Positions 4,381 to 37,542 of a DNA stretch of 39,721 bases are shown in pieces (positions within the stretch are counted from its first letter, which is position 1; each line of letters begins with the position of its first letter). The notes below the pieces were generated by a model that did not search any database, had not been told where the DNA came from, and saw nothing but the letters and a program-made list of their open reading frames with translations. Source of the DNA: Asterionella formosa. Its lineage: Eukaryota. The stretch lies in the NCBI GenBank assembly GCA_002256025.1, contig NKIB01014885.1:1-39721 (forward strand), read 5' to 3'. The position numbers and the translations under genes were made by a program.

Positions 4381-4471
4381 GGTACCAGGTACCTGGTGTA
4401 GAGCACTAACTTTAATACCAGGTACCTGGTACTGCTGCGCTGGTACCAGGTAGAGACCATGGAGTACCAGG
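4381..4471. repeat. TA-CCWGG-TA motif array between the divergent genes at 3920(-) and 4991(+)
   Basis: ggtaccaggtacctgg...taccaggtacctggtac...tggtaccaggta...gtaccagg; further single motifs at about 4666, 4840, 4894 and 4932. Confidence 0.9.
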
Positions 4472-4990
4472 AAACCAACCCGTAACAAGTATGAACAATG
4501 TAACATACCGTTATGAACATTGAACAGATGAACACATGCACACATACATCAATAAATGCAAACATGATTTATTTAATAAGTTGGAAACGGACCATGGGTG
4601 TAGAGCGAGGAAGGTAGTACATACGGCCCCTTGTCCAACTTGGTACCTACTGGCTACAGGCTATATACCGGTATTTCATTCTACATTGGGGCGGGTAGAA
4701 TCAATCCACCACGTGTCAGGAGCGATTGAATCCAGCAGCCAGGCAGCAGTTATTTGTTTGTGCCTCGGTTAAGCCAGAGTGGGCGGAGGGAGTGGGAGGA
4801 CGAAGTATTTTGTGAGCTACTTGTACTCACTGGATCGGAGTACCGGTGCATATGTATGGTTTCTCCTCGTTCTTCTTTCGTCATTCAAACTTACTACCAG
4901 GTACTGTATAAACATTAAATATGACACCACATACCGGGTAGACACATTCAGAAAACTTTAGAGATTACAAAACCTACATGAATCACAAAA

Positions 4991-6256
4991 ATGACATTGC
5001 AACAAACGCTGCTCCTCGCCTTGCTGACCTCACAGGTCCTTGCCTTCCATCTGGCGCCAGCCTGTCAACGACGCACCAGACTCAACTCATCTACCGGCAA
5101 TGGCCCTCCACCTCCTCCCGACAAGAACTCTGGCGAATGGGATGACTTTTTGAATCCCCAAAACCAAGAATCTGAGAATTTGCGACGAGCTCGTGAATAC
5201 ATGAGTGACGAGAGTCTCCCGATTTCATTTGAACGATCAAATCAGGCGGAAGCCACGCCTTTGTCGCCTGAAAGCAAAACAGAGGTGCCAGCAACATCTG
5301 ATTTAGTTATCGGATCTACTGCTGCTGCTGCTGAATCTCTTCTCGAAGAGCCTTCTGCTGAGATGCTGGCAAACAATCCGTACATGATGGTTGTCGCCAA
5401 CTTGGCGCCATCCGACATTATTTCTAAATTCACAAAAACAGCTCACCCTCGTGTTCAAAATGCTGTTCGAGCCACTATTCTTGGCTTGATCGGAAACTTG
5501 CCCAAAATGGCATTCGAAACCAAAACAGTCACAACTGGGCAGCGTCTAGCATCGCTCATGTTTCAACTACAAATGACGGGCTACATGTTTAAAAATGCGG
5601 AGTATCGATTGAGTCTCTCGCAGAGCCTAGGCATGAATTCGAATCCTGCGCTAGGGCAGTCGTCGAGTTTTCGCTTGACCGGATCGGAGGGTGACGATGG
5701 CGACGAGGGTTATGTAGCTATCGATGGGAAGGTACGCGGTAAAATAAAGATTCGCTATGGAGGATATGATGCTAGCGATTCCAGTGGCGAAGTGGATGCA
5801 AATACTGAAACAGAAGGCGCCGGGTTGGAAATGGAGGTCGACGCCGCTGCATTCACATCCGAGCTTCGGTCTGAGGTGGTAAAATTGAGGGAAGAATTGA
5901 CTATGAAACGAAACGAAAAGGATGAAGCCTTGAGAAAAGATCTTTTGCTCTACATTCGCACTCTGCCGGATCAAGAGATGCGCTCTCTTACCAGCACAGT
6001 GACTCAAGATGTATTGGTCGCAATGAAGGGGCTTGTCAATGTCGTCATGTCGGGGATAGGCGAAGGTAGCATTGGACCGGAGACAGTTACAGAACAGAGT
6101 GGCGAAGCCATGGCGCAACTTTGTATGTGGCAGCTTGTAGTAGGGTACAACTTGAGAGAATTGGAAGTACGGGAACAGATGAAGAATTCTCTCATGAAAT
6201 CATTCGGAGATAGCGATGAAGGAGTGGACTTTTCTGAGGTAGGCATTCTCGAATAG
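4991..6256 (+). CDS. DUF760-family protein with two DUF760-like domains, predicted plastid-targeted
   Basis: Intronless 421-aa ORF. Signal peptide ends VLA-FHL (ASAFAP-like). Motifs ILGLIGNLP...LASLMFQLQMTGYMFKNAEYRLSL and LLLYIRTL...LAQLCMWQLVVGYNLRELE-like second domain resemble DUF760. Confidence 0.8.
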   Translation: MTLQQTLLLALLTSQVLAFHLAPACQRRTRLNSSTGNGPPPPPDKNSGEWDDFLNPQNQESENLRRAREYMSDESLPISFERSNQAEATPLSPESKTEVPATSDLVIGSTAAAAESLLEEPSAEMLANNPYMMVVANLAPSDIISKFTKTAHPRVQNAVRATILGLIGNLPKMAFETKTVTTGQRLASLMFQLQMTGYMFKNAEYRLSLSQSLGMNSNPALGQSSSFRLTGSEGDDGDEGYVAIDGKVRGKIKIRYGGYDASDSSGEVDANTETEGAGLEMEVDAAAFTSELRSEVVKLREELTMKRNEKDEALRKDLLLYIRTLPDQEMRSLTSTVTQDVLVAMKGLVNVVMSGIGEGSIGPETVTEQSGEAMAQLCMWQLVVGYNLRELEVREQMKNSLMKSFGDSDEGVDFSEVGILE

Positions 6257-7043
6257 GTACACTTGCAATATTTAAAAAAAGTATAGATTTGCAAAGTGTC
6301 ATGGCGAAAGCAATGAATCATACAGGTGGATCGATTGTTCATCACCTATAAAACAAAAGTGGAACATGGAAACGAATTCTGCTCATGAACCTAATAATCG
6401 TAGAACCTACAAAACAATATATTTCTAGCATAGAATAAGATGCAAATGCATGTACACTCTGGGAAATAGTATTGAAGGAATGAAGAAATCAAGTTGAGCC
6501 ACCAGTCTGCCTTTCCTGTTTACTAGCAATCATGATGGAAATTCAATTGATTATATAAGCATTTTGAGCTTAAAACGATTTTTGTTTAAATTTTCTGTTT
6601 TGTATAGCAAGATGGAGAAAATGTTGTTGAAGCTGTTTTGCTCATAATGATGACTGATCAAAAGTTGCCTTGGTTGTGAACCCTCAACGTGGATAATATG
6701 GGCTACCACAGGTACCCTGTGCATGAATCAACCAAAAAGGAATATGATATATTACAGGCAATACATTGTTGTTTACGTCACCTTATGTTTACTGGTATGT
6801 AGTGTCATTAGCTACAGTATGCATATGTAGGTGGTGGTTGTGATGGCAGCTGGATTGAAATGATGATGTCACACAAAAAGCAAAATTTCTACTTCAAGCA
6901 AACCAACTTTCTTCAGAAAATGGCAGAATAAGTAAAACAGATTTGCTTGACTCAATATTTTAGGCTAAATTAGATTTAAGCTAAATATAATTGGAAACAA
7001 CAAGCCGGCTGGGTTGGTTTATTAAATGGAAATCAAAAAGATC

Positions 7044-7322
7044 CTCTCTCTGTTCCAGTATAGTTGCAACACCACTCTAACGACTAACCTGGCTTGATCC
7101 ACATCCTTCAAAGAAGCCCTCTGTAAAGGCAATATGCATATTCTACACAAGACGATGCAGGCTATGGATACATCGGCTCTTAGATTTGTGTATTTAGGCG
7201 AGTACAACACTAAATAGCGATACAGGTGGATGGTTTTGGGCTCTTGATTTGAGAAAATCATAAGAGTCAAAATGGGCCCGGAAATTTTGAATTATCGATG
7301 CAACTATTTTTTTCAGAGGGAG
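7044..7322. mobile_element. Stowaway-like (mariner-type) MITE, about 280 bp
   Basis: Left end ctctctctgttccagtatagttgca is inverted relative to right end tgcaactatttttttcagagggag, which is followed by TA. The left about 175 bp is homologous to 26133-26310. Confidence 0.75.
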
Positions 7323-7469
7323 TAACAGTTAAATACTTCATTGAGCTTCTATTTAACTAGTACACTCGATCAATTTGTATGACTAAACACTGACATATTC
7401 ATTTCAATCATCACAGATGTTTCAGATCTTCATGAGAGCTAGGGGACTATGATTGGACAAATTATTCAA

Positions 7470-7986
7470 CCAGATTCCATCGACAATTTAAGCTAGGATT
7501 GATTTTTAATGATGAATTTATCCATTATAGAGGTTCAAAGCGATGTATAAAAATATCGTAGAATTTATTTAGACTTAATAGGGAAAATGGATTGCAACAT
7601 TTCAGAATGAGTATTTGCCATCAATTACCGATACTACATACACTTGGAATTATTTTTACTATGGGGATAAATAAGTTTATGTGCAATCTTAATTAATCTA
7701 GTACGATAATAAGACTTACCTAAATCATGTAGTATGCGTACATATACCACCGGCATACTCAGAGGAAGTGGTAAACAGCTATTTTGTTCAACTAAGGTTG
7801 ATCGACACTTTCCCGTATATATACATATATGTATATCATACAACTGAATTTTCAGTGTAGCTCCTTCGCACAACCTAGAGAAGCTCAAGCTACAGAACGA
7901 TCGCTCTAGATTTGTAAACAATTTGAAATTCGTGACAAAACATGCATGTCATTCGATGTATAAAGGTTCAAAGCAGTTTTAACTGG
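7470..7986 (+). mobile_element. Right-end fragment of non-autonomous DNA transposon family A (second copy at about 21850-22389)
   Basis: Shares atttatccattatagaggttcaaagcg, tactacatacacttgg, ttcagtgtagct and gaaattcgtgacaaaac with 21.9-22.3 kb; ends caaagcagttttaactgg. Left boundary approximate. Confidence 0.7.
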
Positions 7987-9654
7987 TTCTTGGTACTCTC
8001 TTTAGGTGAATAAAGGTGCATCGAATGTCAGAACACTTAGTGTCAGGCAGCTTATTTTAGGACCGATTACGTGGACAACATGCCTACTTTATACGTTAGG
8101 GTCATCTTACTCGAAAAAATGCCGTGAGTATAAACTTGCAAATGCTAAAGAATAATATTCATTCCCTACACGTTCTACAGTTGTTACATTTACATTGACC
8201 ACACAACAGCCGTATATATAACGGTTCCGATGATCAAAACAAGCATAACATTGTTTTCGTCCAATGCATCCTCATCGCTACTTTCGCGGTTGCGCATTCC
8301 ACAATCAAATTCAAGTTGCCGTTGTTCTACCATACTGTATATCCTACTTTGTATGTACTTATTCAATGAAACAACATTCAACTTCCTGGGTTACTTGGCT
8401 GTCCTCTAATAATTATACTACTTTTGTACCCCACCTGCGGCCATTCCCATGGCGCTGCTGCTGCTGCTTCCATCACCCTGACCATGGAGCTTTCAGCCAA
8501 TGCTGCTCCTCCTGATATTTCTATGGCTGACTCTGTCTCTTTCACTGATGAATGCAAATCCTCTCGCAAATCCTGCAAATCGACATTTGAAACTCAGGTC
8601 GAAACTGGGAAGCCCTACTTGGGTGCATAATTCCACTGTAATTCAATCTTTTTTACCCTGTCTTGCCCAACTGACCCTCTGACCACCGCTCTTGACCCCC
8701 TTCATAGATCCAAACTTGACGCTTCATTTCACAGCAACAAAAAGCGCTCATCTCATCCCTCTACTCCAAATGACACCTTCACTAACTCCCTTGACACTAC
8801 TGCTAGATCACTGTTATAACTTGGCGTGAACTTGCCACCCCAATGCAACCACAATAGCACTCCTCTCAGCCCCCAACAGCATTCCACCAGGTGTGATCTT
8901 ATCTTAGTAGTACTCTTCCGCCGCAATTGCCTGCCAGGATTTTACAATTCAAATTCACCAAAATGGCAATACAGTTTTCCATATACTTTCTGAGTCTCTC
9001 AAGAGCCTTCTCTTGCTCTCACCTAATGTCTTCATCAGGCTACCACTTTTATTGATTCTTCAAATTCTGGACTCTCAATTTAAAGGTTTCTCCCAAAATG
9101 GCCATGCAGTTTCCATATTTTCTTTCTACTACTTGATTCGCCTTCCTCCCTGCCCTGAGTTCCTACCTATACTGGCTGGTCTACACACACTCTAAGAGCC
9201 TGATATAGGCTCCTTGCCCTTGTTTGCCATCTCTATGGTTGTTTCCTAGTCTGCAATCCCTAAGAGTCTCTGAACAGACTTGCCCTCACTTGTCATTTCT
9301 TTGGGGTCCATTTGTGCCCTAGTTTGACTCCACGAACTCTATTAGATTCAAGTTTCGCTCAATAAAATTGTACTATGAACTTTTATTATTCCACTGTCCT
9401 CCTTCTTATGTATGTTGAGAATAGGTGGTGGTTTGAAGAAAAATGGGTCCTCATGCATCTGCATTTTGCTTGAGATGGCCTTAAGTGAAAATCGAAAAAG
9501 GCCAACAAAGTTTTTTAAAACATCATAGTTGCCAACTCAAATTGATTACATACACATTATGCATTTATCTGTAGCTCGGAGAAAGGCGCAAATTAGGGCA
9601 ATTGAGCCAGAGAAATCATCGGTGTTGAAATGGCCTTGGACAAATGTTAAGAAT

Positions 9655-9683
9655 CAATACAACTATTTTGTCCAGAGGGAGTA
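9655..9683. mobile_element. Isolated Stowaway-like right terminus, abutting TA-CCTGG-TA
   Basis: tacaactattttgtccagagggag|ta|cctggta matches the terminus at 7300-7324. No matching left end recognised. Confidence 0.55.
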
Positions 9684-10148
9684 CCTGGTAACTGTCTTCA
9701 TATGTACTCATGTACTTTTTTACATAGCATGATGATGTTGAGCAAGCGTTGAGGCAACAAAGAAGACAATTATTATAAGTGACATGAACTCAACAGGACA
9801 TGGTGACTCTATAATGGATAAATACCGCATTATAAACGATCATATCTTCCATTGTCAATGGAATCTGGTTGAGTTGGTACTCGCCTAAATGTAAAGACCA
9901 ACGTAACCATAGTCTGCTGACACTAGTGGTGCTGGCGATTTGAGGCCATTCCCCAAGAGAGAGTAACGGTACTAGGTACATACTTCCTAACTGGCTGCTG
10001 CACCACTGCTCTGTGTTTGGCGCTTAATGATGTGATGCATTTAGCAAGCCTTCGCGTGGGTCGAGTAACTTTCTATTGGCAAGGTTGACACGTGGAAGTA
10101 AGTCAAAAAAAGCGAGTAAACAGCCGACAACCAAAAAATTCTACGATC

Positions 10149-10176
10149 GGTACCTGGTACCAGGTACCAGGGTACC
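10149..10176. repeat. TA-CCWGG-TA array about 190 bp upstream of the gene at 10364
   Basis: ggtacctggtaccaggtaccagggtacc. Confidence 0.9.
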
Positions 10177-10363
10177 GACAATTGAGCGAAACAATAAAGT
10201 CGAGTGTGTCAAAAATGCATGGGCTGCTTGCTGCTGATGACACCTGATCAAGGAGCATACCGGGATGTATGGAGTCTACCGGTGTTGGTATATGCGTTAC
10301 TGATATTGAATCGTCAAAACGCTTCCATCAACGTTAAGAATTCGACAAGGCAGATTTGTTATC

Positions 10364-10867
10364 ATGAGAACACGACTTCACATTCCGGAGATGGCACTGT
10401 GCGTTATTCTGTTCATATCTAGCAGCAATGCATTCGTAATGGGAGCAAGCCTTGCAAAACAATCAACAGAGTTCCAATATCCCACAGCAGTCCTGAGATT
10501 AGGCGGTAGAAGCTACTTCGACGACGATGAAGAAGAGATGGAGCGAGAGTTTGCCAAAGTGCGGAGGGGTGGGAGGAGAAGAAACGACGAATACGAAGAC
10601 GATTTTGAACCCGATTTGTACCGAAAGGTCGACGCTTACCTCTCAGATAAAGAAGCAAACGATGACAGGGAAGACGTCGGTAAAAAGGTCGGGATTATTC
10701 CCAACGCTTTATTGGACAGCATTGACCCTGAAGGCGCTGGCGAGCGTTTTCCTGAATTGATCAGAGATCCCAAGTTTTGGATTGATATTGGATTGTTCTT
10801 CCTTTTGTTGAACTTTCTGGACAATATTGCTGTCCTTGATGCATCTCCATTTGGTATGGCTTTCTGA
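10364..10867 (+). CDS. Hypothetical protein, probably plastid-targeted, with C-terminal TM helix (167 aa)
   Basis: Hydrophobic N-terminus ending SSNA-FVM (ASAFAP-like), acidic/basic middle region, C-terminal hydrophobic FWIDIGLFFLLLNFL. The start could instead be the second Met (MALC). Confidence 0.72.
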   Translation: MRTRLHIPEMALCVILFISSSNAFVMGASLAKQSTEFQYPTAVLRLGGRSYFDDDEEEMEREFAKVRRGGRRRNDEYEDDFEPDLYRKVDAYLSDKEANDDREDVGKKVGIIPNALLDSIDPEGAGERFPELIRDPKFWIDIGLFFLLLNFLDNIAVLDASPFGMAF

Positions 10868-11077
10868 CTGTAACCAAACATGAGTCAATGCTGATCCAGG
10901 ATAACGAATAAGGGCGACAATAAACAGAATACATGAGGGCCGTCGAATCAATTTCTCAATTGGGCGTGCTAGTCTCCAAGCCTGCACATAAAAGTGCAAT
11001 CACAATGTGAAAGCATGCTGTTATAAGCCTGAGCGTCTCAATCATTCTACATATGAGCAAAGGAAACAGACAGATCT

Positions 11078-11350
11078 ATGTTTTGCATATAATATTTTAG
11101 CCATTTCGATAAGGGCATGATTGTATAGAGAATGTAATTTTCTGTCCTATTTTAGCAAAATCAAGATTTAGCAGTTACTACTTAGCCAATACCCATGCGC
11201 TTCTCAATTATTCAATAGGGGAGCCAATGAAGCACACCAATATTTGTTTTGAATATAAAATTTTATCCATTTCTACAAGGGCATGATGCTACAAAAGGAA
11301 GCAATTTTCTGTAAGGTGTTTTTGCAAAATTAAGATTAAACAGTTACTGC
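11078..11350. repeat. Degenerate direct duplication (about 100-bp unit, offset about 168 bp) in the 3' flank of the TPR gene
   Basis: gttttgcatataatattttagccatttcgataagggcatgat...gcaaaatcaagatttagcagttact (11078-11180) vs gttttgaatataaaattttatccatttctacaagggcatgat...gcaaaattaagattaaacagttact (11244-11350). Confidence 0.75.
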
Positions 11351-13452
11351 TATGCCCCTGGAGCACACTGGGAGGAGACAATGCCCCTACAAACTTCCTT
11401 GATTGACTCAATTGAACGCGTTAGGGTTCCACCATATCGTGCACTGGCTACCTGTAAGCATTCAAACACTTTCAGAAGGACCTCGTTGGCTTGTACAGGT
11501 TCGCAAGACTCGTGCAAGAGCGATGCAGTCATCAACAATGCCTTAGAAAAGTCTTCCGTTGCCTTCATGTCCATCTCAAATGAGAAAGAATTGGCCACTA
11601 AGACACACGAACGTAATGCATCACAAGACTGGTATGAATGCCGCAAGGCCTGATTCAGATCACCTTTGGAGTGAAAGAGGTCTGCAATCTCAAGAAATGT
11701 ATTTCCCAGCGCATGTGTGCTGTGAATTGATTCTTGGACATTGGCCATCTCTTGAAAGGTCATCAATGCGCCGTCGATGTCACCATGGGATTTTTGTAGT
11801 TTTGACAATTTTTGCAAACTATTCATTGCGTGCTGTGGGTCGTGTCCAAAGCCTCGCAACCTCTGGATGCGAAGGGCTTGGCGCAAGGCGAGCGATGCCA
11901 GCTCTACCTGTTCCTGTTCCATCTGGAGCGTTCCAATGTTGTACCACAAACAAGCCACATCAGGGTGGTCACCTCCAAGTAAAGCCATTCTCAATTCCAG
12001 CGACATTTGAAAAGCAGAAATTGCTTCTGTCCGTGATCCCATGCGATCGTATATTAGTCCTAAGTTGTACCAAATGGTGGAAAAAAGGTTTTTTGTGTCA
12101 TCGGAAACATTAGGATCCAAAGGTAGGTTTGCGTGGCCTCCAGCAAACGAAGATGCGAAATCGTGTTCCGATCCACTGGCCAGGTCAGACTTGAGGGCTT
12201 GTTGATAGCAACCGATTGCTTCAGGAAGTTGGCCAAGCTCCTGAAGGATTCTTCCAATGTTGTTGTAGGTGACACTGACATTGATGCTTGGTTCGCTTCT
12301 GCCAAGCCTCTCCTCGAGCCTCAGTTCCTCTTTGTAAAACAAAATGGCAGACTCTAATTCGCGGCGATGAAAGAGAATTGTGCCAATGTAGTTGAGAAGC
12401 GAAGCAATTTCGGCATGTTCAGCACCAAGGTCATCTCGTTTATCTTGAAGGCCACGGATGGCGCGGACTAGCTCATGAGAGACAGCGTCGCATTTTTCTT
12501 CGTTCTCCATAAGGACAATGTAGGCAATGGCAGGAATAGGATCCAAGATGCGCTCATTGTTGGTTACAGACGAAGCCGAGAGGTATGCTCGTAGGTGCTC
12601 AGTTGCGAGCCCCTTATCATGTTGGGCATATGCCATGATGCCGAGGTTGTACCTAGCACAGGCAATATCAATGTGCCCTTCCGGAAGGACTGATGAGCGT
12701 AACCGAAGAACTTCCCGGCAGAGTTCGTAGGCTTCATCATCGACACTACCAAGCATCCATTTTGTCCGACCATAGTTAGACATGCAGGTTGCACGAATGA
12801 GCCTGGAAGAATGGTCATCCGCTACCGTTTTCTGGGACCACATCCGCGATTGCGCAAAGTGATACTGAGCTGATTCTTCTCTGCCAAGGCAATAGAAGAG
12901 CTGTCCAATGTTGTTGTGCAGGATCATTCCCACATGAGAGAGCCACTCTCCGTCAGTAGTTGCTATCTCCCTCTGTGCAGTCACAGAAAAAAATCTGGCG
13001 CATTCTTCGTAGAAACCTAAAGCCTCTTCAAGCTTGAAACTTGATTGCAACACAATTGCAGTATTGAAGAGGACAGCAAGTTGCAGAGACTGTTCCTTGG
13101 GCGCAACGACGAGATGGAGTGGAGACCGAATAGGACGAGGACCAACGTCGCACTCCCCTTCGAGGTAAGTGTCGGGAGGGTAATCAAGATAGTGCAATCC
13201 GTTGCAGCAGTCCGCCTTTGGCATTTTGACTCTGACATGAAGTTCTCCCTCTGACGACCTAGCGGTGAATAAGGGGGTAGTCAATCGAAGCGCCTTTAAA
13301 GCAGATTCAAAGATAGCAAGCGCTTGACCTTGATGACCAGCAAGGTAGAGTTGGGAACCAAGATCATTCAACGCAATCACCGTCGACCTTCGATGGTGAC
13401 TACACAAACTTTCTGAGCCAATGTTACAGGAATTGGTTGGCAGTGCAGGCAT
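11350..13452 (-). CDS. Tetratricopeptide-repeat protein (kinesin light chain/NPHP3-like TPRs), 700 aa
   Basis: Intronless ORF with repeated TPR signatures: HIDIACARYNLG, HAEIASLLNYIG, VSVTYNNIGRILQELGQLPEAIGCYQQAL, HPDVACLWYNIG. Confidence 0.88.
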   Translation of the reverse strand: MPALPTNSCNIGSESLCSHHRRSTVIALNDLGSQLYLAGHQGQALAIFESALKALRLTTPLFTARSSEGELHVRVKMPKADCCNGLHYLDYPPDTYLEGECDVGPRPIRSPLHLVVAPKEQSLQLAVLFNTAIVLQSSFKLEEALGFYEECARFFSVTAQREIATTDGEWLSHVGMILHNNIGQLFYCLGREESAQYHFAQSRMWSQKTVADDHSSRLIRATCMSNYGRTKWMLGSVDDEAYELCREVLRLRSSVLPEGHIDIACARYNLGIMAYAQHDKGLATEHLRAYLSASSVTNNERILDPIPAIAYIVLMENEEKCDAVSHELVRAIRGLQDKRDDLGAEHAEIASLLNYIGTILFHRRELESAILFYKEELRLEERLGRSEPSINVSVTYNNIGRILQELGQLPEAIGCYQQALKSDLASGSEHDFASSFAGGHANLPLDPNVSDDTKNLFSTIWYNLGLIYDRMGSRTEAISAFQMSLELRMALLGGDHPDVACLWYNIGTLQMEQEQVELASLALRQALRIQRLRGFGHDPQHAMNSLQKLSKLQKSHGDIDGALMTFQEMANVQESIHSTHALGNTFLEIADLFHSKGDLNQALRHSYQSCDALRSCVLVANSFSFEMDMKATEDFSKALLMTASLLHESCEPVQANEVLLKVFECLQVASARYGGTLTRSIESIKEVCRGIVSSQCAPGA

Positions 13453-13594
13453 GGTTTACAAATTGAACTCGGTTGTGATTTGTGCTAGGATTTATGACAA
13501 TACATTAACACTTCAGCGTACCGGTAGTAATAATCAATGGAAATATGCAGATGGTCCTCGGTGAGCGAACTACGATGTGTCATACAATTGGCAG

Positions 13595-13631
13595 CTGGAA
13601 CCAGGGTACTAGTACCTGGTACACCCGGTAC
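13595..13631. repeat. TA-CCWGG-TA-type array about 145 bp upstream of the TPR gene
   Basis: ctggaaccagggtactagtacctggtacacccggtac; also gtaccggta at about 13519. Confidence 0.8.
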
Positions 13632-14197
13632 GAGGGTTCTGAGGAAATCGTTTTTGATGAAACAAGCTTGTCAGCGTTGCACGAACGCCATTATTATTGA
13701 GTCAGAGCCAGTTCTCCTACATATGTATTGCCTCCTTCTCGCTTTGTTTTATATAAAATCCGTGACTATTCATTCACCTGTTCCGAATTTGCCACGCACG
13801 AAATACGGCACTTCTCCATGTCCCGCCTGCTTGTCGTCGCAGAATCTGAGGCTGGTTTTCCCAGGCTTTTCAAGGCAACGACACATATGAAAAGAAGATT
13901 CGATGGGAAGAAAGGAGGAGCAGACCGCACCATCCAGTGCAAGGCGATCTATACGAACGTTATTTCCAAAACAAAGTCGATGACGAGCGGAGGCCACGTC
14001 GTGCTCATAATTGTATTTTACCAATAGTAAATGTAAGGTATTGATGTAAGCTTCAAGTCCAGTAAATCAAAGAACTCGTTGTTCTTTACAATTCTATGAA
14101 GAAGGCTGCATGTTCAATCAGCGACTCGCCTGATTCACATTTTAGTGAACACGTCGCCTTTGATGTCAAAGCTTCCTTCGACTCTTCCCATTCCAGC

Positions 14198-14272
14198 ACC
14201 TGGTACCTGGTACCTCGTACCAGTACTGCAACTTCGTCATCATAAAACGAATCTCTGTGTACCAGGTACCGG
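14198..14272. repeat. TA-CCWGG-TA array at the left edge of the transposon cluster
   Basis: acctggtacctggtacctcgtaccagtac ... gtaccaggtaccgg; a Stowaway-like left end (ta|ctccctctg) follows at 14300. Confidence 0.85.
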
Positions 14273-14414
14273 TTGAAACGGTATGTAGCGTATGCCTGTT
14301 ACTCCCTCTGGGGGTTGTTGAAAAGTGTTCGCATATTAAGGATTATGTGGCCATCATACTATGTTTCTACGTGAGGGTCCACATACTCGAAAATATCTGT
14401 TTGTTACTAGTTAA

Positions 14415-15915
14415 GGTTGCTGCCCCGGCTTAACCCTAGTTCGAAAAAAAACCCCGCTGGGGTTGTAAAAACGGCGTGGAACAGGGAGTTTCCTACTATG
14501 AATTCCCATGATTCGAGTGTCCATTTGAATATTTGAATTAAATAGGAATCGGGGCCAGGTTGATAGAGTTCCATTAAAATTAAAATAATGACATTTAAAC
14601 ATTTATACTTTTTGTACATTGCTGGATGTAGAAATAATTGTACTCAACACCAAAACATATATAAATTAGGAGTATGCCAACATATATGCCCATGGCTCTT
14701 GTTTATGCGCTAATATTGAATCTATGTTGCTGAATGTAGTTTCAATATCACTCCACGCACAAAGGTATATGCTGGAATGAAAATCAGTACCAGAGTCCCT
14801 GAGTACCAGTAACGGTATTTTGGTACTCGGAGTACCAGGTAGCACATAATCTTGGTTCATCATCATGGAAGACAGGATGAAACTACTGGGACTGATTTTA
14901 CCAACCAGTATTCAGTACAACTAATACGTGTGGTTCAAGTGTGGCTGGCGAGATTTTACAGAACCGGGATAGTTCAGCAAATCTAGAGTAGGTGAATAAA
15001 TTCAATTAAACCAATCAGAATATGTGTAGTGACGCGGGAGCTTACCCTGGAGTCTTTTCGGACTGAGAATTATTCAGCAAAACATTCCTATGCAAGACTC
15101 TAAGTATCATAAGAGAACGATTTTGCACGTAAAATTCTGATTCTAATATTTTGGCGACTGATGAAAGAGCCGATCAGGCCGACTTTTTGGAGGAGGATTG
15201 CTCTACATTTACGGGGTTTCATGAAGAATGAAATATATAGCCTTGTACCCTATAACTTCAGGAGTTAACTTCTGCAGAGAAGTGGCAGTTATCCCTCGTA
15301 CATTTTGTAAATAGCTTGATGGTCCCCTTTTTTGACTTTTATTTGGATAGTTACAATTCCAAGAGGGATAACTGCCACTTCTCACAAGAAATGATGTCCT
15401 TACCATTTCTGAATATAGAACATACCCCTAAGTCGAGGAATGACTGTATCTAAGCATAGGCAAAGTGGTCGTATTGGTGAAAGCTAATTTACCTATAACT
15501 ATTTTATTTAGTTGCATGCACTGTGTGGATTGAGGTGCATAATAAAATTATTTTGGAAAAAACAGACCTCGTGATGTGTAACTGCGGGGCCGCAACCTTA
15601 AATGCATTTAAACATATTCTCTGTTTCTGTAATTAAGGTTCCTGCATTTCAACCCGAAGGCAAAAATTAAAATATTGCTTAGGGTTGCCGAAATTCCCTG
15701 GAACTAAGAATTTATATGAGCTATTTTTGAATTACATGATTCCATTAGACATATTCAAATTAGTGGAATATACAGGTATAGATTGTAAATCTCTCTGTAT
15801 ATACTGGCATACGGAAAAGAATCCTGCAGATGTCCTAAGAACAAAAAATGTCACAGAAAAAATTATGGACAAGCATGGATACGCGATCCAAATGTGTAAC
15901 TGCAGGGCCGCAACC
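14415..15915. mobile_element. TTAA-flanked non-autonomous element(s), Kolobok-like; probably two units, 14415-15597 and 15637-15915
   Basis: Left ttaa|ggttgctgcccc (14411). Right ends ggggccgcaacc|ttaa (15597) and agggccgcaacc|ttaa (15915), both preceded by atgtgtaactgc. A weaker second left end ttaa|ggttcctgc lies at 15633. No coding capacity seen. Confidence 0.6.
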
Positions 15916-16000
15916 TTAACCTCTTTCTCATCTACACGTATTCTACTGCTGATGTGACCTAAGCAACTTGGTTTATCTCGAGTAAACTCGGATACCGGTA

Positions 16001-18102
16001 CCAGATAAAAATGGCTTGGAGCCACTCAACGATATAATATTTACAAGCAATGTATACATAGATTTTTCTAATTTTCCAGTTATGACAGTTTTTAGTATGA
16101 CAAAGTTGTACCTTATGTTGAACCAGATACAACATATCTCGTTGTCGATTAGGTTATTTGTTTCAGATAATCAGATAAATTTGTTCGAAAGTAGAGATCG
16201 GCCCAAAAGTGGCAAAACAAACTATACCATTGAGCCAGCATCTCCCGGAAATACATGTATACATTTTTGTACACAATTTGATATATATTTAGTTGCCTTT
16301 AACCGCCATGGACCATGTACTATACCAATAAATGAATCAATTAGTCACTCTAAGTTAATGAATGCAATATTTCTTTAAGGCAAAAAATGGAGCCATGTTT
16401 TCATGTCAGAGACCGTAATTCAAAGCAGAAAATGCTTCTGACACACCAAAAGTTAAATCAAATCGCAGGCATCTCATTAACAACGATTAAACTTACAGCA
16501 AAAAAAACAGCCTCAACTACCCAAAAAGTACGAGGTGATGCCTATACTTTGGATAAGACTGTAGTGTCACTTATTTAAAAATATATATATAGTAATGGAT
16601 TTGGAAACTTTGAATGGCAAATAACAATGGCAAACTACTATCAAACTACTGTGTGGTGCAATATCGAATATTGTTGCATCAAAGGCGGCTACACTGCCTT
16701 GGAAAACAAAACCTAGTCCAGGAACATTTATAGAAGCTTAATCAGGCGGGAAAGGCAACTAGCTAATTCACTTGTGCAATTACATGCTACTATGACAAGA
16801 AATGATTCACAGCCGTTGGCAGGACATATTTATTAATCTCTATTCTGACTATAAATTCAAGTTTAAAGATCCAACTCACGAAATACAAGAGACACTTACT
16901 CGCCCATAAGGAAAGGCGCCATGTTGCATTGGCTGTTGAACAGAAAGATATTGTTGACCTGATGTTGAAAGCATGGGATGAATCATTTGGCCATATCGCT
17001 AAAAACCAAAAAGCTGTTGCTGAAAGGCAGAGGTTGGGGTCCATTGAATTACAACTTGTTGCCCCATCCAGAAATTCAACTGACAAGTACCTCAAATCTT
17101 CAAACAGAATCAAACAATAATCAACCCGCCTCTTACCTTCCCCCTTCCGGTCTAAACTTGAGCCAAGGCATCACTGGAACCCTTGTTGATCAGGTCTTAC
17201 AGTATCGCAATCGTCAGGACGCTAGAATGGGAATAAATCTGAACAAACTTACCTGCCAACGAAAAAATCAGTGCCAAGAGCGATTGCAAGCAATAAACGA
17301 TACACAGCCGGTCTTTCTATCTCCGCAGGCAGTTACTTGTTAAGTTTTGAAGTGGTGGATGAACAACTAAAAAGGAAGAGGCACGCGGAAGAAGTGCAAA
17401 GTGAGCGAGAGAATAAGAAAACAGATGCAGAAATGGCGCTTGCATACAAGGCTAATGCAATCAGACCGCTTAACAAATAGCCAGCTGAGTGGATAGTAGC
17501 ACAAACGAAAACAATGGCAACTGGGTAGAAGCAAGCAGGAAACCTTCCATTTCCAACAACAAAACAACTACTACTTACCAGATTCCATGACACCATGCAT
17601 GATGTGTGGCGTCGCTGCAGTATCAGTTGCAACTGCTGTAATGGCTGATGCCACTTCCTCATCACCCTTTGGTTGGCTGCTCCTACTATAACAAAACAAG
17701 ATATGATGGGAGGACCACAAGTCTGAGGATGATGCAGCAACTACTGCGAAAAAATATGAGGAGACAGAACTGACAAGAAAACCATCAGTCTAAAAATGAT
17801 GCAACAACTGCGAAAAAACGTGCAAACGAGATAATACTTTCTAGCCGTCGCCTATGAAAATAACTACATGTAGGGTAAAATTTTAATCATTGGTTTTGAG
17901 CCACTTCGACCGGTTTTGTCACTTTAAAGAGGACAGATCTCAATTAATATATGTAAAAGTATAAAAATGATCTAATTCTCATGTAGCTCAATGAACTGAC
18001 TAATATCGTGCCAAAGGGCGAAAGAGGGAAATGATTTTTGCATGCTTCAAGAATGATTCGGAAAACGACATAAAACCATGGCTCAAAGTCATTTATAATT
18101 GG
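16001..18102 (+). mobile_element. Internally deleted pogo-like Tc1/mariner element with TIRs of about 25 bp and TA target duplication
   Basis: Left TA|ccagataaaaatggcttggagccac; right catggctcaaagtcatttataattgg|TA. Frameshifted transposase-like C-terminal relic at about 16860-17595: DIVDLMLKAWDESFGHIAKNQKAVAER / GWGPLNYNLLPHPEIQ / KQAGNLPFPTTKQLLLTRF. Confidence 0.78.
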
Positions 18103-18431
18103 TACCGGTATGTGCCAAATGCTGGTATGTAAGTTCCGTTCTTATCATTTTTTCATGTACTGCATCACGAAATTTGAAAATTTTTGAAAATGTATAAGCA
18201 ACGGCAACTCGATTTGAACTGAATTTCATTCATTCCAAAATTGACACTGTGTCACTAATTCGTGATCACATTGTATCATGGAGTAACATGGATCTTCAAC
18301 GGCAACTGGCTGGCGAAGATCAGGTGTATATCCTTCCAGAATATATTGATGGTCTTGATATCAAGCAGCAGCATAAAATATAATTATTGGTAAACTATAA
18401 ATTATTTTAAAAACACACCATTGTATGAATC

Positions 18432-19670: not shown

Positions 19671-19678
19671 ATCGGTTC

Positions 19679-21663: not shown

Positions 21664-21849
21664 TATGTTTGATGTTTGCATGTTATACGAGTATGTTGCA
21701 TAATCCTCAGAAGTCTCAGTTCTCTTTGGTGGGAGGCGTGGTGCTTGTGGCTGCTGATGGTGAAAAGACTATGCAGTCCGTCCATCGCCCAACCGCCCAA
21801 GGTAAAAACAATGCATCCCCTTGCCTGCTTCGTCCTCATTGTTTCAGTC

Positions 21850-22389: not shown

Positions 22390-22391
22390 TA

Positions 22392-23128: not shown

Positions 23129-23130
23129 TA

Positions 23131-23885
23131 CCACTTTAAGACTGTAAGCCACCGCTACAACGACTTTTGAACTGTAAGCCACCGCTAAACGGAGTAAACG
23201 CACGATTTGAACTTAGTTTTTAAGAAACGTTAATTATCGTCATGAAGGAGTTGTTCAGATTTATATAGCGATAAAATACGTAGTAAGTACTTGTATTGTT
23301 GGATTGTGTAAGTTGTTAACTATTTATTACGGCCCAAAGGTTGCTGTTGACGCGAAATAGCGAAAAATTGAAAATTTCACGCTGACTCTATTGAGTTGAC
23401 ATCGTCTTTTCTACACGTGCACATGTACATGGACAAAAATATTCTTCCCATAGAATTAATTTAGTATTATTAAATGTGTGTACAATGTCATTGTGCTTTC
23501 GAATATATTGTGCATCAGAAGAATTCGGTGATGATGCAAGCGCAAAAAGCATACTGCATTGCGCCAAAAAGGTAAAGTAATACGAAAATAATTTCTTTAG
23601 TATGAACGGAGTAAAGATAATCACGGTTTGGGGGGGGGGGAACTCATGAGTGGATAGAAAAATATGCACTGCAAGTCACCGCTATGCAACAACTTTAATG
23701 ACTTTGAAAAAATTAGATCTTCATGGCTTTATAAACTGAATCGAAACTGATTACTTATTCGTAGAATTGAGTTCATCGTGTAACATACACTTAGTACTTG
23801 CATCAGGTCTCGATTGTAATCTTACTTGAATATTTTTTGGTCGGAAGATGGAGTAAAATAACGGTGGCTTACCGTTTTTAACTGG
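23131..23885. mobile_element. MITE family B, copy 2, head-to-tail with copy 1
   Basis: Left end has a doubled actgtaagccaccgcta; interior is collinear with copy 1 (ttacggcccaaaggttgctg, atcacggtttgggggggggggaa, tttgaaaaaattagatcttcatggctttataaactgaatcg); ends cggtggcttaccgtttttaactgg|TA. Confidence 0.85.
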
Positions 23886-23887
23886 TA

Positions 23888-25368
23888 CCACCTAAAAACT
23901 GAGAGTCATCCTTATTTTACCCTAAGTTACTATTCAAATTATTTTAGTCCGATTACATGGTAATATTGAAGCAAGTACGAAGGTTATTGTGGCTCGTCCT
24001 CCTGTTGGGTACTACTAGATCTAAATATAACTATGGTGAACTCAATATTTCTTGAGATAAAAAATTTTGTAATGTCATCGTTTTGCCTCATAAGGATGAG
24101 TCTCAGTATATTGGTTTTTAATAAATACATGAGGAAATTTAAATCTTCCATTTTTCCCCAATTACCCATTTTTGCCAGAAAAACTTTTTGATGCCACAAC
24201 ATTATTAGTCCGTTTCAGATTACTATCCTTTATTTATTGTCTCTTTCGACGTTTTCTTTCCATAATAATAGTCGGTTTCGAAGATACTCCACTATTAACA
24301 TTTGGTTTCGGGTCAAATGCAACTTAAGTTAATTACTTTAGTGACGGTTTCGGTAATATTTAATTACGTCTATCGCGTGACAGCCTAACACTTGTTGCTT
24401 GACAATCCTCATACATAAAATATGTAGACCATGCAATAACTGCTGGCGATGAAGCTGTGTACCAGGGTACCTTGTACTGGTACTAGTACCGGGTAATCGT
24501 CATGACAATGTTGCTGATCGACAAAGCCATGACAATGATGAATGACAATTTTGTTTAATTATTGAATTATGAATCAATGATAGTTTTTGAATGTTATCTC
24601 GAGTAGATTATGTTATATCGTAGAACAGCGCATCTGTTCGAAAGTGTCGCGTCTTGATGCGACAAAGAGGGATCGAGAAATCATCGACAGTGTCGAGCGC
24701 CATTGTGAGTTTTCCGATTTTCCATATTCGACTTTATCTAAACGAATATACAAGCTACAATGAAATTCGTTTCAAAATATACTAGCGAATAATCTATTCT
24801 ACTCAGTGGACTAATAATAACATAGCTTCATGCTAGAAAATCAACAATTTTCACTTGTTTTAATGGTTGTAATCATAGTGCCGGCAAAATATCTAATTAT
24901 ACACCGGTGAGATTCTGCCGTCAGTGCGTAGATGCCGGTAAACTGATCACTGCCTTTGATCAATGTGTGGTGAACAGGACGGAGCAACAGCACTCCATGT
25001 GACATTGATAATCAATTGAAGTCAATAAATATAGAAACAAAAGACACTAAATAATTAACAAAGAATCAATAAAAAATTTATTTAGCTGAAATGTGATCTA
25101 ATTGTCAAAAATGCCTTGCCAACTCAACAGGGTAATCTGATTTGATCCAAATTTTTGCGACAGCTACCTTTCGACCTATTTATCTCAAGAAAGGAAGCGA
25201 AAACTCAACTTACAAGTATGACCATTGCTCTTCCATACATTCCAATGAACAACTTTGTCTAAAACAGAATCAATGTATCTCCAATATTCGTCCCAAAACG
25301 TGTGATTACCCTGTTTAAGGATGACTCTCAGTAAAAAAAGAATAACGATGACTCTCAGTTTTACGTGG
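23888..25368. mobile_element. Non-autonomous element family C (about 1.48 kb, TA-flanked, TIR about 22 bp)
   Basis: TA|ccacctaaaaactgagagtcatc ... gatgactctcagttttacgtgg|TA. Subterminal copies gatgactctcagt (25320) and gatgagtctcagt (about 24096). Internal TACC array at 24459-24495. Followed directly by ccaggtaccaggta. Confidence 0.78.
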
Positions 25369-26132
25369 TACCAGGTACCAGGTAGTGTCAGAGCAGCCAT
25401 CATGTTAAAATTTTGATTGAATGATTTCATCAGAAGTTCCAATGATAATAAAACAGCTAAAAAGTTATTCCAATGGTTCACGGCAGTATATACGTTTTTC
25501 TAGATAAATGTATATACATTTTCGAGGATGTATTCCTAGGTCAGCATGTGTCAAAGCACTTTTCATGCATGTTATTGCACACCTTATGAAAAACTGGTAT
25601 TTAATCCCTACCTGGTGTTATACCAGTAACCATACTATATGATGCTGCATGCCTAAATAATTTGCCATATCCGTAGAGGTTAATACCAGGACAAGATATA
25701 TATTGTCACAAATGAGGGAGGGTAAGGTTCAAAAAAATTACGAAAATTTGACATTCATCATCATATATCATCATATGACGTGGAGACTTCTAAGCTTAAA
25801 CTAGTCCGTGTTCTCCATGGTGTTTTGGTAAATCGATCATTTCAGGCAATCTATTGAGATGAACAGCTTGCTCCAAATCTCGAACTACATAGCTGACTAG
25901 ACTACATACTCTCAAAATTTACATTTACATAAGTTTGATATCAAAATATGATATTCTGGGTTCAATGAGTCAGAGCAGTACAAGAATATTGTCAATGGGT
26001 CATGGCAGTTTGTTACAGGTATCAGGATCTCAGAATAGCATGGGACATCCTGGTGTGCAAATAGCATAGCAAGTAGAGGACTGTTGACAAGATCTTAATG
26101 AAAAATAAACTGCTTTGTTGTGGAACTGGGTA

Positions 26133-26310
26133 CTCCCTCTGTTCCGGTATAGTTGTACTAACACCCTCAGCGACTAACCCGGCTCGATCCACATCGTTCA
26201 AAGAAGCCCTCGCTCTGTAGAAGCAACATACATTTTCTACGCGAGAGAGGATGCAGGCTACGGATATCGGATTGATTTGTAGATTTAGGCGAGTATAACG
26301 CTAATTAGTG
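26133..26310. mobile_element. Truncated Stowaway-like MITE (left part of the 7044-7322 family)
   Basis: ta|ctccctctgttccggtatagttg...cgactaacc..gatccacatc..ttcaaagaagccctc..gatgcaggcta..tttaggcgagta, all shared with 7044-7220. Confidence 0.78.
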
Positions 26311-31810: not shown

Positions 31811-32389
31811 TTCGTCAGCCACTTCTTCGTTTTTGTCTGAGATATCTTCCATCCCAGTGGTTTTCAAACCACCGGGTCAGGATGTAAACAAGTTTTGTCT
31901 CAACATGGAGGAGGGTCTATAATTTAAGTTAATACATAGTTTTCTCCTCTATATCAACACTAACATTCCTTGCTTGGCGGTGTATCTATGTGGGTACCGG
32001 TACATCGCTAGTAAATAAATTTATTACGGTAACACATCTGCTCTTTTTCGCTATTGTTTGATGTCGCTGCATGTGTAGAAAGTGCTCTGTAGTATTTCCA
32101 CGTACTTTTAAGTACCCATGACGATCAATTTCAACGTGGGTACCGGTATCGAAGCCCATAACAGAACATCCTTTGTGCTGTTCGAAGATAAGTACAGCCA
32201 TGGCAGCTGATGGAGTGACCTTGTACGAAAACGAACGTCATAGACCGGTGTCGTTATTCAAATCGAAATACCGAATTCAATTGATGTTGTCGGCGCCAGG
32301 CTATTGTAGAGGCTGTCACGGTCAATGCTGAACTGACTACAGTTGCTTTCGATTATAATTCTTTTGGTCTTGATAGCGCCGAGGCCATC

Positions 32390-32860
32390 AACACAGGTCT
32401 TCAAGGTCGATACTGTTGTGACTACACTTGATCTCAATGGCAATTCAATTGGTGATGATGATGCAAAGGCCATTACCCCATCGAGGTCAATTTCAACACA
32501 GGCCTTCAAGGTCGATACTGTCATGACTATACTTGATCTCAATGCCAATGCAATAGGTGATGATGATGCTAAGGCCATTACGCACCCCATCGAGGTCAAT
32601 ATCAACACAGGCCTTCAAGGTCGATACTGTCATGACTACATGACTAGATCTCAATGCCAATTCAATTGGTGATGAGGATGCAAAGGCCATTGCCCCCTCA
32701 TGGTCAATACTGGATTGAATAACTTGAATTTACTTCTGAGGCAATTAAATTCACGTCAATGCCAATTCAATTGGTGTTGATGACGCCAATTGAATTGGAG
32801 ATGCTCTCAAGAAGGTCAATCCTGTCTTGACATCTTAACAATGCTTTCTCTCAATTGTAA
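32390..32860 (+). pseudogene. Degenerate RNI-like/NLRC3-type leucine-rich repeat array (3 near-identical units of about 105-109 bp plus decayed units)
   Basis: Units start at 32390, 32495 and 32604 (aacacagg.cttcaaggtcgatactgt) and encode KVDTVVTTLDLNGNSIGDDDAKAI. Frame is lost in unit 3; no start context. Confidence 0.75.
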
Positions 32861-34630
32861 TGCAACTGGTATTGATTAACTAATTGAACAGCTTACTATT
32901 AAGTAAGGACTATTAGATATAAATTTACCATCCTTTTCCATAAGAATCGAGCAAAAATGGTGGGCCACATGAATTTCTCGAATGTATATGGTCAATATGG
33001 CTGTCTATATTCATAAATATATGATTTAAACCATTTGAAATTTTGGTGATGACTTCCTTTTGTTAAGGTGCTAAATTAATTCAGCCACTGACATGTAGGT
33101 ACAAGAATTGACACAAAACCAATTGAGAAAATTCAACAGGTTGTGGAAGACTATGAACTCATAATGCATTGTATATATTTGAATTATGTATAATCAAAAC
33201 TGATGAAAGTATACACAGGATGTGCCAGATAATGAGCGTGTTTAAAACTATGCAAATGTTCAACTATTTATACATTCCAACTTACAAATCTTTATATATA
33301 TGTATACATGGCTGAAACATTTAAAATCATGTTTTTATGTTCCTTGTCATGCATACACTTTGCTCCTGAAAACCATTCTTAGCTAAATATAGTTCTAAAT
33401 TTCGATCAATTTCATCCTATTTTAGACAGTGATATCGATGAGAATTACGATCATGCTAAGATAGATGTATGACAAAAGTATACACATCATATGACCATGT
33501 TTGAGTAATTATATGATGAAATGGTATTATAACTATGATAGTCTCATCATACTTCAAGCTCGGTAAAATTTTACTGCATGATCATAATTATATGATACAT
33601 TGATCATATTTTTGATCGAAAAACTATCATATATTTGAAAATCCTGTGCCACTTAGCGTATGATACCGTTGATCATATTTTCATGATATTTTTTATTTAC
33701 AGACGGCCTGCTTCCATCGTCTGTTTTGATCGCTTCCATTGTTGTTTGTTGTTCCTCACTGTAGTTTAGATTCGAGTGTAAGTATCTACACAAGGGCATA
33801 GCTATGGGTGTATCAATGACTACTCTTTGAAGATGTGGTATTTGGCTGTTGTTGATCTTATTTATTGATTTGTATAGTCATTGACCATGCATGATATCAA
33901 TAGTGCCGCCAAGCAATGATGCTTTTCTTGTACTAACGCGCTTGGCTACCTTTCTACTACAAGTTCGTATCACAAGCTATGTATCAATTTTCAGCCAGAG
34001 GGAGTCGATAGTGCTGGAGCAGTCTGGTGAACACGCTCGCTCAGAATGGAATGATCAGGGTTGATTGGTTGTGGGGGGAGGAATGCCTGGTGCGGTGGAA
34101 AGACTGCTACTGGTGTCAGGCTACTACAGCGATGTGAATGGTTGCAGCAACCAGACCATCTACGCTACATAACGATATAGGTCTAAATGGGGTCAGCTTT
34201 TTTCTTCTTATTTTGGTCTTTGATTGAGTGGTGATGGAAAGTCAATGTTGCCTGTGTAAGTACTACAATGTCACAATGCATACGTCTCCATTGAAACTCC
34301 TATTTTTTACTTCATTTCTAACCCAAAACAATTTTTTTATTTCTCATTTGATGATGTTGCATGTTGCAATCATTCTCGTGTGTTTTACGCTTGTTGTACC
34401 CTTTCTATGTATTTTACTGTCATTCTGGCTGTCATGGTAAAATCGGCAATTTTGATGCCGAAAAATTCGATGTGCTCCATATTGCCCCTAAATAAAAATT
34501 ACTTAACAATTACTTAGAGCCTAAAAATTACTTGGAAGTACATACCCGAATGGCACGACGCTAGCTGGAACCGGGAGTTTTGCCTTCAGCGACGCAGATT
34601 TCCATTTTGCATTTATGTGCTGTACGGCTA

Positions 34631-34839
34631 GTACCCCTGGTACCAGGTATCAGAACCACGACCTGTGACGAGCTGCAGCATGTGTGGTACCTGGTACCAG
34701 GTACCAGGGGTGCCGTAACTATGTTTACGATGCATCATTCTCCGAGTAGCAGTAACTGGTACCAGCACCATGCATACGTAAATTTCGATACTGTACTGCT
34801 GGTCGTAGGATCTGACTACCGGTACATACCGATACCAGG
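34631..34839. repeat. TA-CCWGG-TA arrays 150-350 bp upstream of ERGIC3
   Basis: gtacccctggtaccaggta; ggtacctggtaccaggtaccagg; ctggtaccag; taccggtacataccgataccagg. Confidence 0.88.
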
Positions 34840-36495: not shown

Positions 36496-36668
36496 CATTA
36501 GATTACTTATCTATAATGATAATAGGAAAACGGAGAACGATTTTTAGAACAAGAGCAAAGCAATGCTTCCCAAAACCGATTTACAAAATAGAACGGAGTC
36601 CGCGCGACGACTTGCTACATTGTAGATTGATTAACAAGATAGTATTTGCCCAATAACGATAAAGATAT

Positions 36669-37115
36669 TTACTTGGCCATTGGATGAGCAGTAATATATT
36701 CCACGGCATCACTAATACTGGCAATTTTGTCAGCCTCGGCGTCTGGAATTTCGACAGCGAATTCGTCCTCAATCGCCATGACAACTTCCACAGCGTCCAA
36801 CGAGTCTAAGCCCAAATCTTCTGCGAATTTCGATTCAGGGGTGACCTTGTCTTCGTCAACTTTGTCAAAGTTCTTCACAACTTGTACAATACGTTCGGTG
36901 ACTTCGCTGGCATCCAAAAACGACTGAAGTGCGAGAGAGAGGAGGGTGGCAAGGTTGTGAGAATAATCTGGGCTAAAAAGTGTTAATTTTGCACGTCAAC
37001 TTACTCCCCCCGAGAAGTATCGCAGATGATTAGGCTGTCTCACAACAGCAAACGTATTGTTGCTCACGACTGCTCGAGCAGCAACACGGGAGGCGACACG
37101 GGCAGCAGAGAACAT
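36669..37115 (-). CDS. NDUFAB1: Mitochondrial acyl carrier protein (NDUFAB1/ACP1-like); exons 37115-37005 and 36923-36669, 121 aa
   Basis: Exon 1 MFSAARVASRVAARAVVSNNTFAVVRQPNHLRYFSGG is an Arg-rich, acid-free presequence. GTAAGT...CTTCAG intron at 37004-36924. Exon 2 carries the phosphopantetheine motif DLGLDSLDAVEVVMAIEDEF. Confidence 0.93.
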
Positions 37116-37492
37116 GTTCTGAACAAAAGGGGATATAGGAGATGCGCAAATTGTGAGTAACACAGTCTCACGCAAGACGTACAGACCGCAATGAGCATGT
37201 TGTGCTGAATAATAATCTCGTCAATCCGTTGTTGGTGTTGCTTCTTGGACTCTTGTGTCTTCATGGTGCTTGGAACAACAAGTGATAGTTATTGCAGGAT
37301 GCAACGATCCATGGTACAGGATCAGGCACACACCTTTTTGTTTCAACAAAGCAAAAGGTTGCTTCTTGTTATGTGACGCAGTATGCCGTGGTGAAAGAAA
37401 ATAAGGAGAGGATGCATCGAGCAAGCAGTATTATATCATACACGGTAAATGTACGATATGTATCATGCGCAAAGCATCTACCGTGTAACCCT

Positions 37493-37542
37493 TACCTGGT
37501 ACCAGGAACCTTACAGCCTCTATTAGCTATACCTGGTACCAG
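37493..37542. repeat. TA-CCWGG-TA array running into the assembly gap
   Basis: tacctggtaccagg ... tacctggtaccag immediately before the Ns. Confidence 0.85.

Follow-up and report, generated by a model that had tools for sequence, protein, structure and literature searches.

The footprint of Sleeping Beauty is TAC(A/T)GTA. For several members of the Tc1/mariner superfamily (Stowaway/Osmar, ZB and the pogo-family element Passer), published passages on excision describe footprints in which non-homologous end joining has left the duplicated TA and a few bases from the element's ends (PMC4561436, PMC7913693, PMC9976928). The passages on Passer further give a GTAC-centred target, AAGTACTT, a preference for transcription start sites and promoter chromatin, and footprints of 0-4 bp (PMC9976928). 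Re-insertion beside an older footprint is described for one Triticeae intron (PMC1925063), and in the sections that treat them, footprints and adjacent re-insertion are known from single loci (PMC1925063, PMC4561436, PMC7913693, PMC1636448). Oomycete promoters carry the palindromes TACATGTA (motif-1, M93, AM-20) and TACCGGTA (M94), which the motif sections of PMC3597505 and PMC3520976 treat as factor sites; a passage of PMC3520976 notes TACATGTA as a Tc1 footprint and dismisses this origin because of the abundance and conservation of the motif. Here we analyze arrays of TA-separated CCWGG units (W being A or T) in a 39,721-nucleotide stretch of DNA from the freshwater diatom Asterionella formosa (NKIB01014885.1, hereafter the window); this stretch makes up the entire contig G000:C14885 in an assembly of 68 Mb. 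The original prediction, made from the letters of the window, had proposed that the arrays mark the 5' flank of nearly every gene, either as a general promoter element or nucleosome-free mark, or as a record of promoter-targeted transposition. Our results support transposition as the origin of the units: with a probability of roughly 70%, the arrays would be stacked excision footprints of TA-targeting Tc1/mariner-superfamily elements, chiefly of pogo-like families with CCA ends. The promoter-like word is most likely a transposon scar and not a required promoter signal, and the arrays may be passive marks of open chromatin.

The exact word TACCWGGTA occurs 20 times in the window, compared to a mean of 0.13 and a maximum of 2 in 200 dinucleotide shuffles, and 26,886 times in the genome, compared to 902 for the reversed control; for GGTACCWGGTACC the genome holds 9,910 copies and 5 of the control. 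Positions relative to genes were analyzed in a 759-kb sample, made up of the window and of 27 contigs, taken whole or in part. Open reading frames (ORFs) of at least 200 aa, in place of annotation, served as genes (203 in all, of which 160 have an ATG close to the ORF start). Because 24 of the sampled contigs were chosen from motif hit lists, densities are perhaps slightly high (0.45/kb versus 0.39/kb genome-wide). The density of TACCWGGTA is 0.03/kb in ORFs, 0.7/kb at -1 to -100, 1.9-2.9/kb between -100 and -700 and, over the 500 bp that follow stops, 0.1-0.45/kb, with control words flat across these positions. This comparison, which had been suggested as a check, excludes a uniform density and yields a 5' peak: the feature is real, genome-wide and 5'-biased. 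Among spacers of 300-3000 bp, with the window and repeat-derived ORFs left out, densities are 0.15/kb in convergent (2/17 regions), 1.19/kb in tandem (19/42) and 2.21/kb in divergent orientation (22/30; p=2e-5). The avoidance of convergent spacers noted for the window thus holds in the larger sample, whereas the emptiness of the window's own three is not significant, because they total only 1,279 bp, where about 0.9 site is expected at the sample's non-ORF density.

The promoter element fared less well. TACCWGGTA lies within 800 bp upstream of 75 of 150 sampled genes (and downstream of 30 of 186), so that 'nearly every gene' does not extend beyond the window. Adding the sister word TACCGGTA, which the original prediction had missed, raises the number to 101 of 150; it is equally common in the sample (304 versus 342) and 5'-biased like TACCWGGTA, yet not arrayed. 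TACCWGGTA shows no strand preference (130 versus 108) and its upstream positions form a broad plateau. It is absent from all 25 orthologous ERGIC upstream regions of other eukaryotes, mostly diatoms, that had enough upstream DNA to be counted (among 72 loci from one metagenome scan, none of which exceeds 66% protein identity), several of these 25 being near-duplicates and their proteins at most 64% identical. A general promoter element is therefore unsupported. The ERGIC3-like protein of the window has its best named relatives in pennate diatoms (Fragilaria crotonensis, 64%), and the RNA runs that contain it come from lake, freshwater and algal samples. Other diatoms have TA-palindrome tracts of their own upstream of the ERGIC gene (TAGCTAGTAC-type; GTAC-rich; loci L086, L090; L133, L134).

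Cut at each TA, the arrays are strings of CCAGG, CCTGG, CCGG, CCAG/CTGG, CCAGGG, CCCGG and CTAG, with unit lengths of 6-9 mixed within one array. The mixing of A and T orientations, described earlier for the window, is genuine genome-wide: among 5,576 doublets (AA 1485, TT 1589, AT 1002, TA 1500) 55% have the same orientation and 2,502 are mixed, so that neighboring centre bases are nearly independent. A slippage microsatellite would have identical neighbors; plain slippage is therefore excluded. At the ends of a 740-bp miniature inverted-repeat transposable element (MITE) discussed below, T is slightly preferred at -3 (15 versus 8 A, n=33), which predicts the doublet order TA > AA = TT > AT, and AT is indeed the lowest. 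The excess of AA and TT over the footprint expectation (~10% of doublets) would then be the amount added by slippage. As to the shorter units, CpG decay may add to TACCAGTA (203 versus 284 TACCGGTA), which is also born directly (7 events). A homogeneous run of a mutated unit, (CCTGTTA)n at G000:C2578:18196-18270, shows that slippage can amplify a single unit.

Transposable elements occupy the same slot as the units. Between 22376 and 25384 of the window, the order is element end, TA, MITE, TA, MITE, TA, element B, TA, CCAGG, TA, CCAGG, TA; a CCAC-type element end adjoins the MITE stack at 22389. All element ends here and at 15993-18110 begin with CCA. The terminal inverted repeat of the 740-bp MITE reads CCA(G/C)TT..AACTGTAAGCCACCG, each copy is bounded by TA, and 263 ends are found genome-wide at no more than one mismatch. 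In 27 of 29 loci, three having been dropped or merged as duplicates of the window or of each other, 33/33 ends follow TA, 25/33 follow GGTA and 19/33 adjoin a unit. The flank profile of these ends (G.88, G.79, T.45, C.67, C.61) agrees almost exactly with that of TACCWGGTA (.83,.73,.46,.60,.51). A more abundant MITE of 97 bp has CCAG/CCTG ends, 25/47 of them still at TA, and from their sequence its tips would also be able to join into CCWGG.

Since this common context could also mean that elements target existing arrays, we turned to older repeats and compared their paralogous copies. Inserts that read TA+CC../..GG and precede a TA account for 7/87 five-base, 21/104 six-base, 7/43 seven-base and 2/21 eight-base indels, and for 0/221 four-base indels; at random positions the pattern occurs at a rate of 0.5-0.9%. 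The TA target is thus duplicated around the inserted bases far above the chance level of <1%. Of 40 listed birth events, three of which fit the pattern loosely and some of which are possibly one event seen twice, 37 have no like neighboring unit. Where four or more paralogs were informative (21 events), most of them lacked the insert in 16, the unit being derived relative to the empty site. The inserted bases match the termini of resident TA-flanked elements with terminal inverted repeats (CCA(G/C), CCAG/CCTG and CTCC ends).

The array at 24460 lies within element B. In 20 readable copies (the window and 19 of 28 other loci), seven are bare and the rest carry 1, 2, 4, 5 or 6 units, so that empty and scarred copies are both seen among paralogs and growth by units is evident; the near-identical copies L188 and L189 differ by 24 bases of array, and L204/L205 have a CCAC-type element end at about this site, with an altered junction. 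A prediction made by the footprint model was tested after it had been formulated: Stowaway-like elements with CTCC ends, an end sequence as in the primer passage of PMC4561436, should leave TA-CTC(C/G)GAG-TA. TACTCSGAGTA is present 464 times versus 86 for the control, and 7 times in the sample versus 0.1 expected, mostly within arrays and once at 14824 of the window. Together with the element-end context, the TA-duplicating births and the variation at 24460, this supports the proposed transposition record as the origin of the units. For insertion aimed at promoters the outcome is divided, since the 97-bp MITE is upstream-enriched (18/30, p=7e-5) and the long elements that survive show no such enrichment.

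A 2.9-kb element with the terminal inverted repeat of the 740-bp MITE and a broken ORF lies at G000:C1997:17200-20300 (L217). Its ORF belongs to a multi-copy family of ~900 aa with 98 relatives and with invariant D241, D390 and D428 in 45 homologs, which Atlas places at 0.95 to DDE_1 (pogo-type) clusters (187-190 of 256 features). The window element at 16001-18102, with CCA ends, contains a transposase remnant of this family (16806-17477), which may be an undescribed pogo clade. Family members (P0121-P0218 and the window remnant) are found in diatom-like sequence sets and have the motifs DEVGSN, LLLDGHGSR and QVGDSSEQNG. DDE_1 matches in the genome number 93; nine of them, with equal score, have the same 367-aa open frame (G000:C63, C213, C396, C3388 (L216), C10964, C14579, C15032, C15145, C15178), which suggests a very young pogo-type family, one for which no ends were recovered. 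A broken Harbinger-type transposase (DDE_Tnp_4, 18615-19505) lies between two copies of a 300-bp repeat (17706-18005, 19679-19978), with a CCAG-type end nearby at 20075. As a source of the units this remnant (19155-19505) was set aside, because the element ends beside units sit at TA.

The arrays and elements of the window are as follows (no strand assigned unless given):

4381-4471: array of TA-separated CCWGG units between a divergent pair (minus-strand ORF 3279-4004; DUF760 gene, ATG 4991)
4895-4903: single TA-CCAGG-TA unit, 96 bp upstream of the DUF760 ATG; unlisted earlier
9682-9690: single TA-CCTGG-TA unit, its TA common with a Stowaway-like end (CTCCCTCTG, minus strand, at 9681)
10149-10176: three-unit array (CCTGG, CCAGG, CCAGGG), ~190 bp upstream of ATG 10364
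13595-13631: mixed array (CCAGGG, CTAG, CCTGG) upstream of the TPR gene
14197-14268: two more arrays, 750-810 bp upstream of the TPR gene; unlisted earlier
14824-14841: TA-CTCGGAG-TA, the predicted scar of CTCC-ended Stowaway-like elements, stacked on TA-CCAGG-TA
15993-18110, plus strand: decayed pogo-like element (16001-18102) with TA-CCGG-TA at either side
21626-21663: mixed array ~175 bp upstream of the Mpv17 ATG (21453)
22392-23885: two tandem ~740-bp MITEs (22392-23128, 23131-23885)
23888-25368: element B, a 1.48-kb non-autonomous element with CCAC ends, next in the TA-separated stack
24460-24495: five-unit array within element B
25369-25384: TA-CCAGG-TA-CCAGG-TA, directly extending the element stack to the right of element B; the nearest gene start is ~4 kb away
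34631-34839: arrays 150-350 bp upstream of the ERGIC3-like gene (ATG 34987)
37493-37542: array between the divergent ACP and RPT5 genes, truncated by an assembly gap (37543-38132)

The six arrays of the original prediction are all present where it placed them and at the distances from ATG codons that it gave. Its list is incomplete, as 7 of the 20 exact sites lie outside (4895, 9682, 14204, 14260, 14833, 25369, 25376). Nine host genes were defined from ORFs and Pfam. Their coding spans hold no exact site, and eight of them have one no more than 1 kb upstream, just as claimed; upstream of serC there are only TACCAGTA/TACTGGTA, at 642 and 870. The serC-like ORF, so labeled earlier, has no Pfam match at E 0.001 (1467-2654). 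The arrays at 24460-24495 and 25367-25384 are 3-4 kb from any found gene start and sit within, or at the end of, a transposon.

RNA contigs were mapped to 6000-25999 of the window in 4 of 12 runs. Those of the gene with ATG 10364 start at 10327-10386 in three runs and at 10502 in the fourth, and those of the Mpv17 gene extend to 21502-21519. In run X7, one contig lacks 8 bases at 13626, readable as one TA-initiated unit, at a depth of 6.5 that makes this weak. No long RNA pieces at the 24460 or 25369 arrays are among those listed for this region and these runs, which is uninformative for contigs. Short joints between arrays in RNA contigs were rejected as splicing, being cross-matches of a repeat. 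Low-depth contigs from three runs at 13431-14489, covering 13431-14027 or more and reaching 0.6-1 kb upstream of the TPR gene, span two arrays and may be a long 5' leader or an upstream transcript, with either strand possible. Elsewhere in the window, a 1-kb polyA contig (run X5, depth 274) covers a repeat-like region without long ORF at 8321-9328, and degenerate leucine-rich-repeat ORF fragments (LRR_6) lie in ~105-bp tandem repeats at 32303-32884. A small contig, G000:C5307 (L161, L187), duplicates 21840-26180 with 100% identity over the 401 bases searched and is probably an assembly duplicate or haplotig.

From these sequence comparisons we infer a cycle in which an element would insert at TA and duplicate it, and excision would leave 2-4 terminal bases on each flank for end joining to fuse. 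The joined products would be CC+GG, CCA/TGG around a single centre base (A or T), or just CCAG. Such a scar would create GGTACC, the context in which elements are found, and because of this the site could be struck again and the array grow, by one unit per cycle and with W set independently each time; some slippage and deletion between units would add to this. Two causes would gather the scars upstream of genes: a preference of insertion for the open DNA of promoters, and the removal of scars from coding and 3' transcribed regions.

Several findings weigh against this explanation. Excision itself is unobserved, and the trio of filled, scarred and empty states was not seen at one unique locus. 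With 26,886 scars and only a few hundred to few thousand surviving elements, a very high past turnover is needed. The insert is carried by most paralogs in 4 of the 21 informative events, with one tie. Births at bare TA are mostly CCGG (14) or CCAG/CTGG (7) and exactly CCWGG in only 4/40, plus one at the element B site, so that the dominant array unit is less often caught. The element B tree sets bare apart from filled copies, though its support is low (80/78, midpoint root). The units CCAGGG (43) and CCCGG (30) are not simply derivable from CCA/TGG ends. In tandem spacers the half next to the ATG holds no significant excess over the half next to the stop (46 versus 32; 12 versus 8 regions, p=0.5), and the surviving long elements have 9/38 ends upstream with 26% expected, by a loose pattern with some false matches. 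Lastly, the L217 ORF family has no Pfam match, no PDB match and no pairwise match to two DDE_1 proteins.

Three other explanations have to be weighed. The first, which we consider unlikely, keeps the scar origin and adds later co-option: a factor would bind the scars, and selection, not insertion preference, would give most of the 5' bias. It draws on the contrast between long elements with matching target context, which are not promoter-enriched, and scars, which are (245/335 TACCWGGTA sites within 1 kb upstream of genes versus 26% expected; in unique DNA, 2.2/kb upstream versus 0.35-0.43/kb elsewhere). Loss of large inserts from promoters accounts for the same contrast, however, the upstream enrichment extends to the short 97-bp MITE, and arrays change between near-identical copies, as in L188 versus L189.

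Improbable, in our view, is that the words are general transcription factor sites, forming selected homotypic clusters like oomycete TACATGTA/TACCGGTA, in which transposons merely land. This would fit the strong 5' bias with its dip in the first 100 bp and the sharpness of the consensus, most single-mismatch neighbors occurring 5-30 times versus 332; in the motif section of PMC3597505, TACCGGTA is motif M94 of Phytophthora promoters, and a passage of PMC11134190 reports that PsMyb37 binds TACATGTA. Yet it leaves unexplained both the TA-duplicating births in repeats far from genes and the match of a second scar word to a second element family, and the gene counts given above (half of the genes, or two-thirds with TACCGGTA) are at odds with the expected presence at most promoters. 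The 25 orthologous regions counted also lack the word. Very improbable is that repair or replication at the GGTACC palindrome (hairpin snap-back, templated insertion, slippage) wrote the units without transposon excision: although homogeneous many-unit runs occur (C260, C1127, C1637), same-orientation doublets exceed the footprint expectation by ~10% and units such as CCAGGG appear templated, this process cannot account for CCGG or CCWGG that arose at a bare TA, in A+T-rich surroundings and without a template nearby (37/40 events), and slippage alone would not yield 45% mixed doublets.

If the arrays are stacked excision footprints, a genome has acquired tens of thousands of promoter-like motifs by an unusual route, and abundant promoter palindromes, which motif finders would call factor sites, have a concrete source in mutation. 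The scars would map past insertion sites, and possibly open chromatin, at ~27,000 places in a diatom, and the elements concerned belong to a multi-copy protein family without Pfam annotation. The footprint origin dismissed for oomycete TACATGTA is reopened and can be examined simply, by comparing bare TA with the motif across paralogous repeats. We offer only tentatively, as a rather doubtful extension, that a cycle of insertion and excision feeds itself, as each scar rebuilds the target, and in this way acts as a general engine for the formation of lineage-specific TA-palindrome arrays in stramenopile promoters, some scars being taken over as factor sites (e.g. the PsMyb37 motif). If true, the resident elements of a lineage would have left their ends on record in its dialect (CCWGG and CCGG here, TAGCTAGTAC-like tracts among other diatoms, TACATGTA among oomycetes).

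In the full-text literature, subscription papers and supplements lying outside the search, we found no report of diatom arrays of this kind and none of stacked footprints across a genome, and neither ACCGGT nor GGTAC occurs in the main text of PMC11267843. With slippage microsatellites in promoters, the arrays have in common short tandem units whose number varies between copies, but their centre base is nearly independent, their unit lengths are mixed and the first unit is born without a template. The oomycete palindromes, as presented in the motif sections cited, resemble them in being TA-bounded and very abundant upstream of genes, in another stramenopile group, and TACCGGTA is letter-identical to the Asterionella sister word. 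They differ in that Asterionella offers sequence evidence for birth as a footprint, and in that the 7-bp stacked form is not described in those sections. Tc1/mariner footprints likewise keep the TA duplication and terminal bases of the element; in Asterionella, as paralogs indicate, the putative scars number tens of thousands, are stacked into multi-unit arrays in promoter regions and would recreate the target of the elements that left them.

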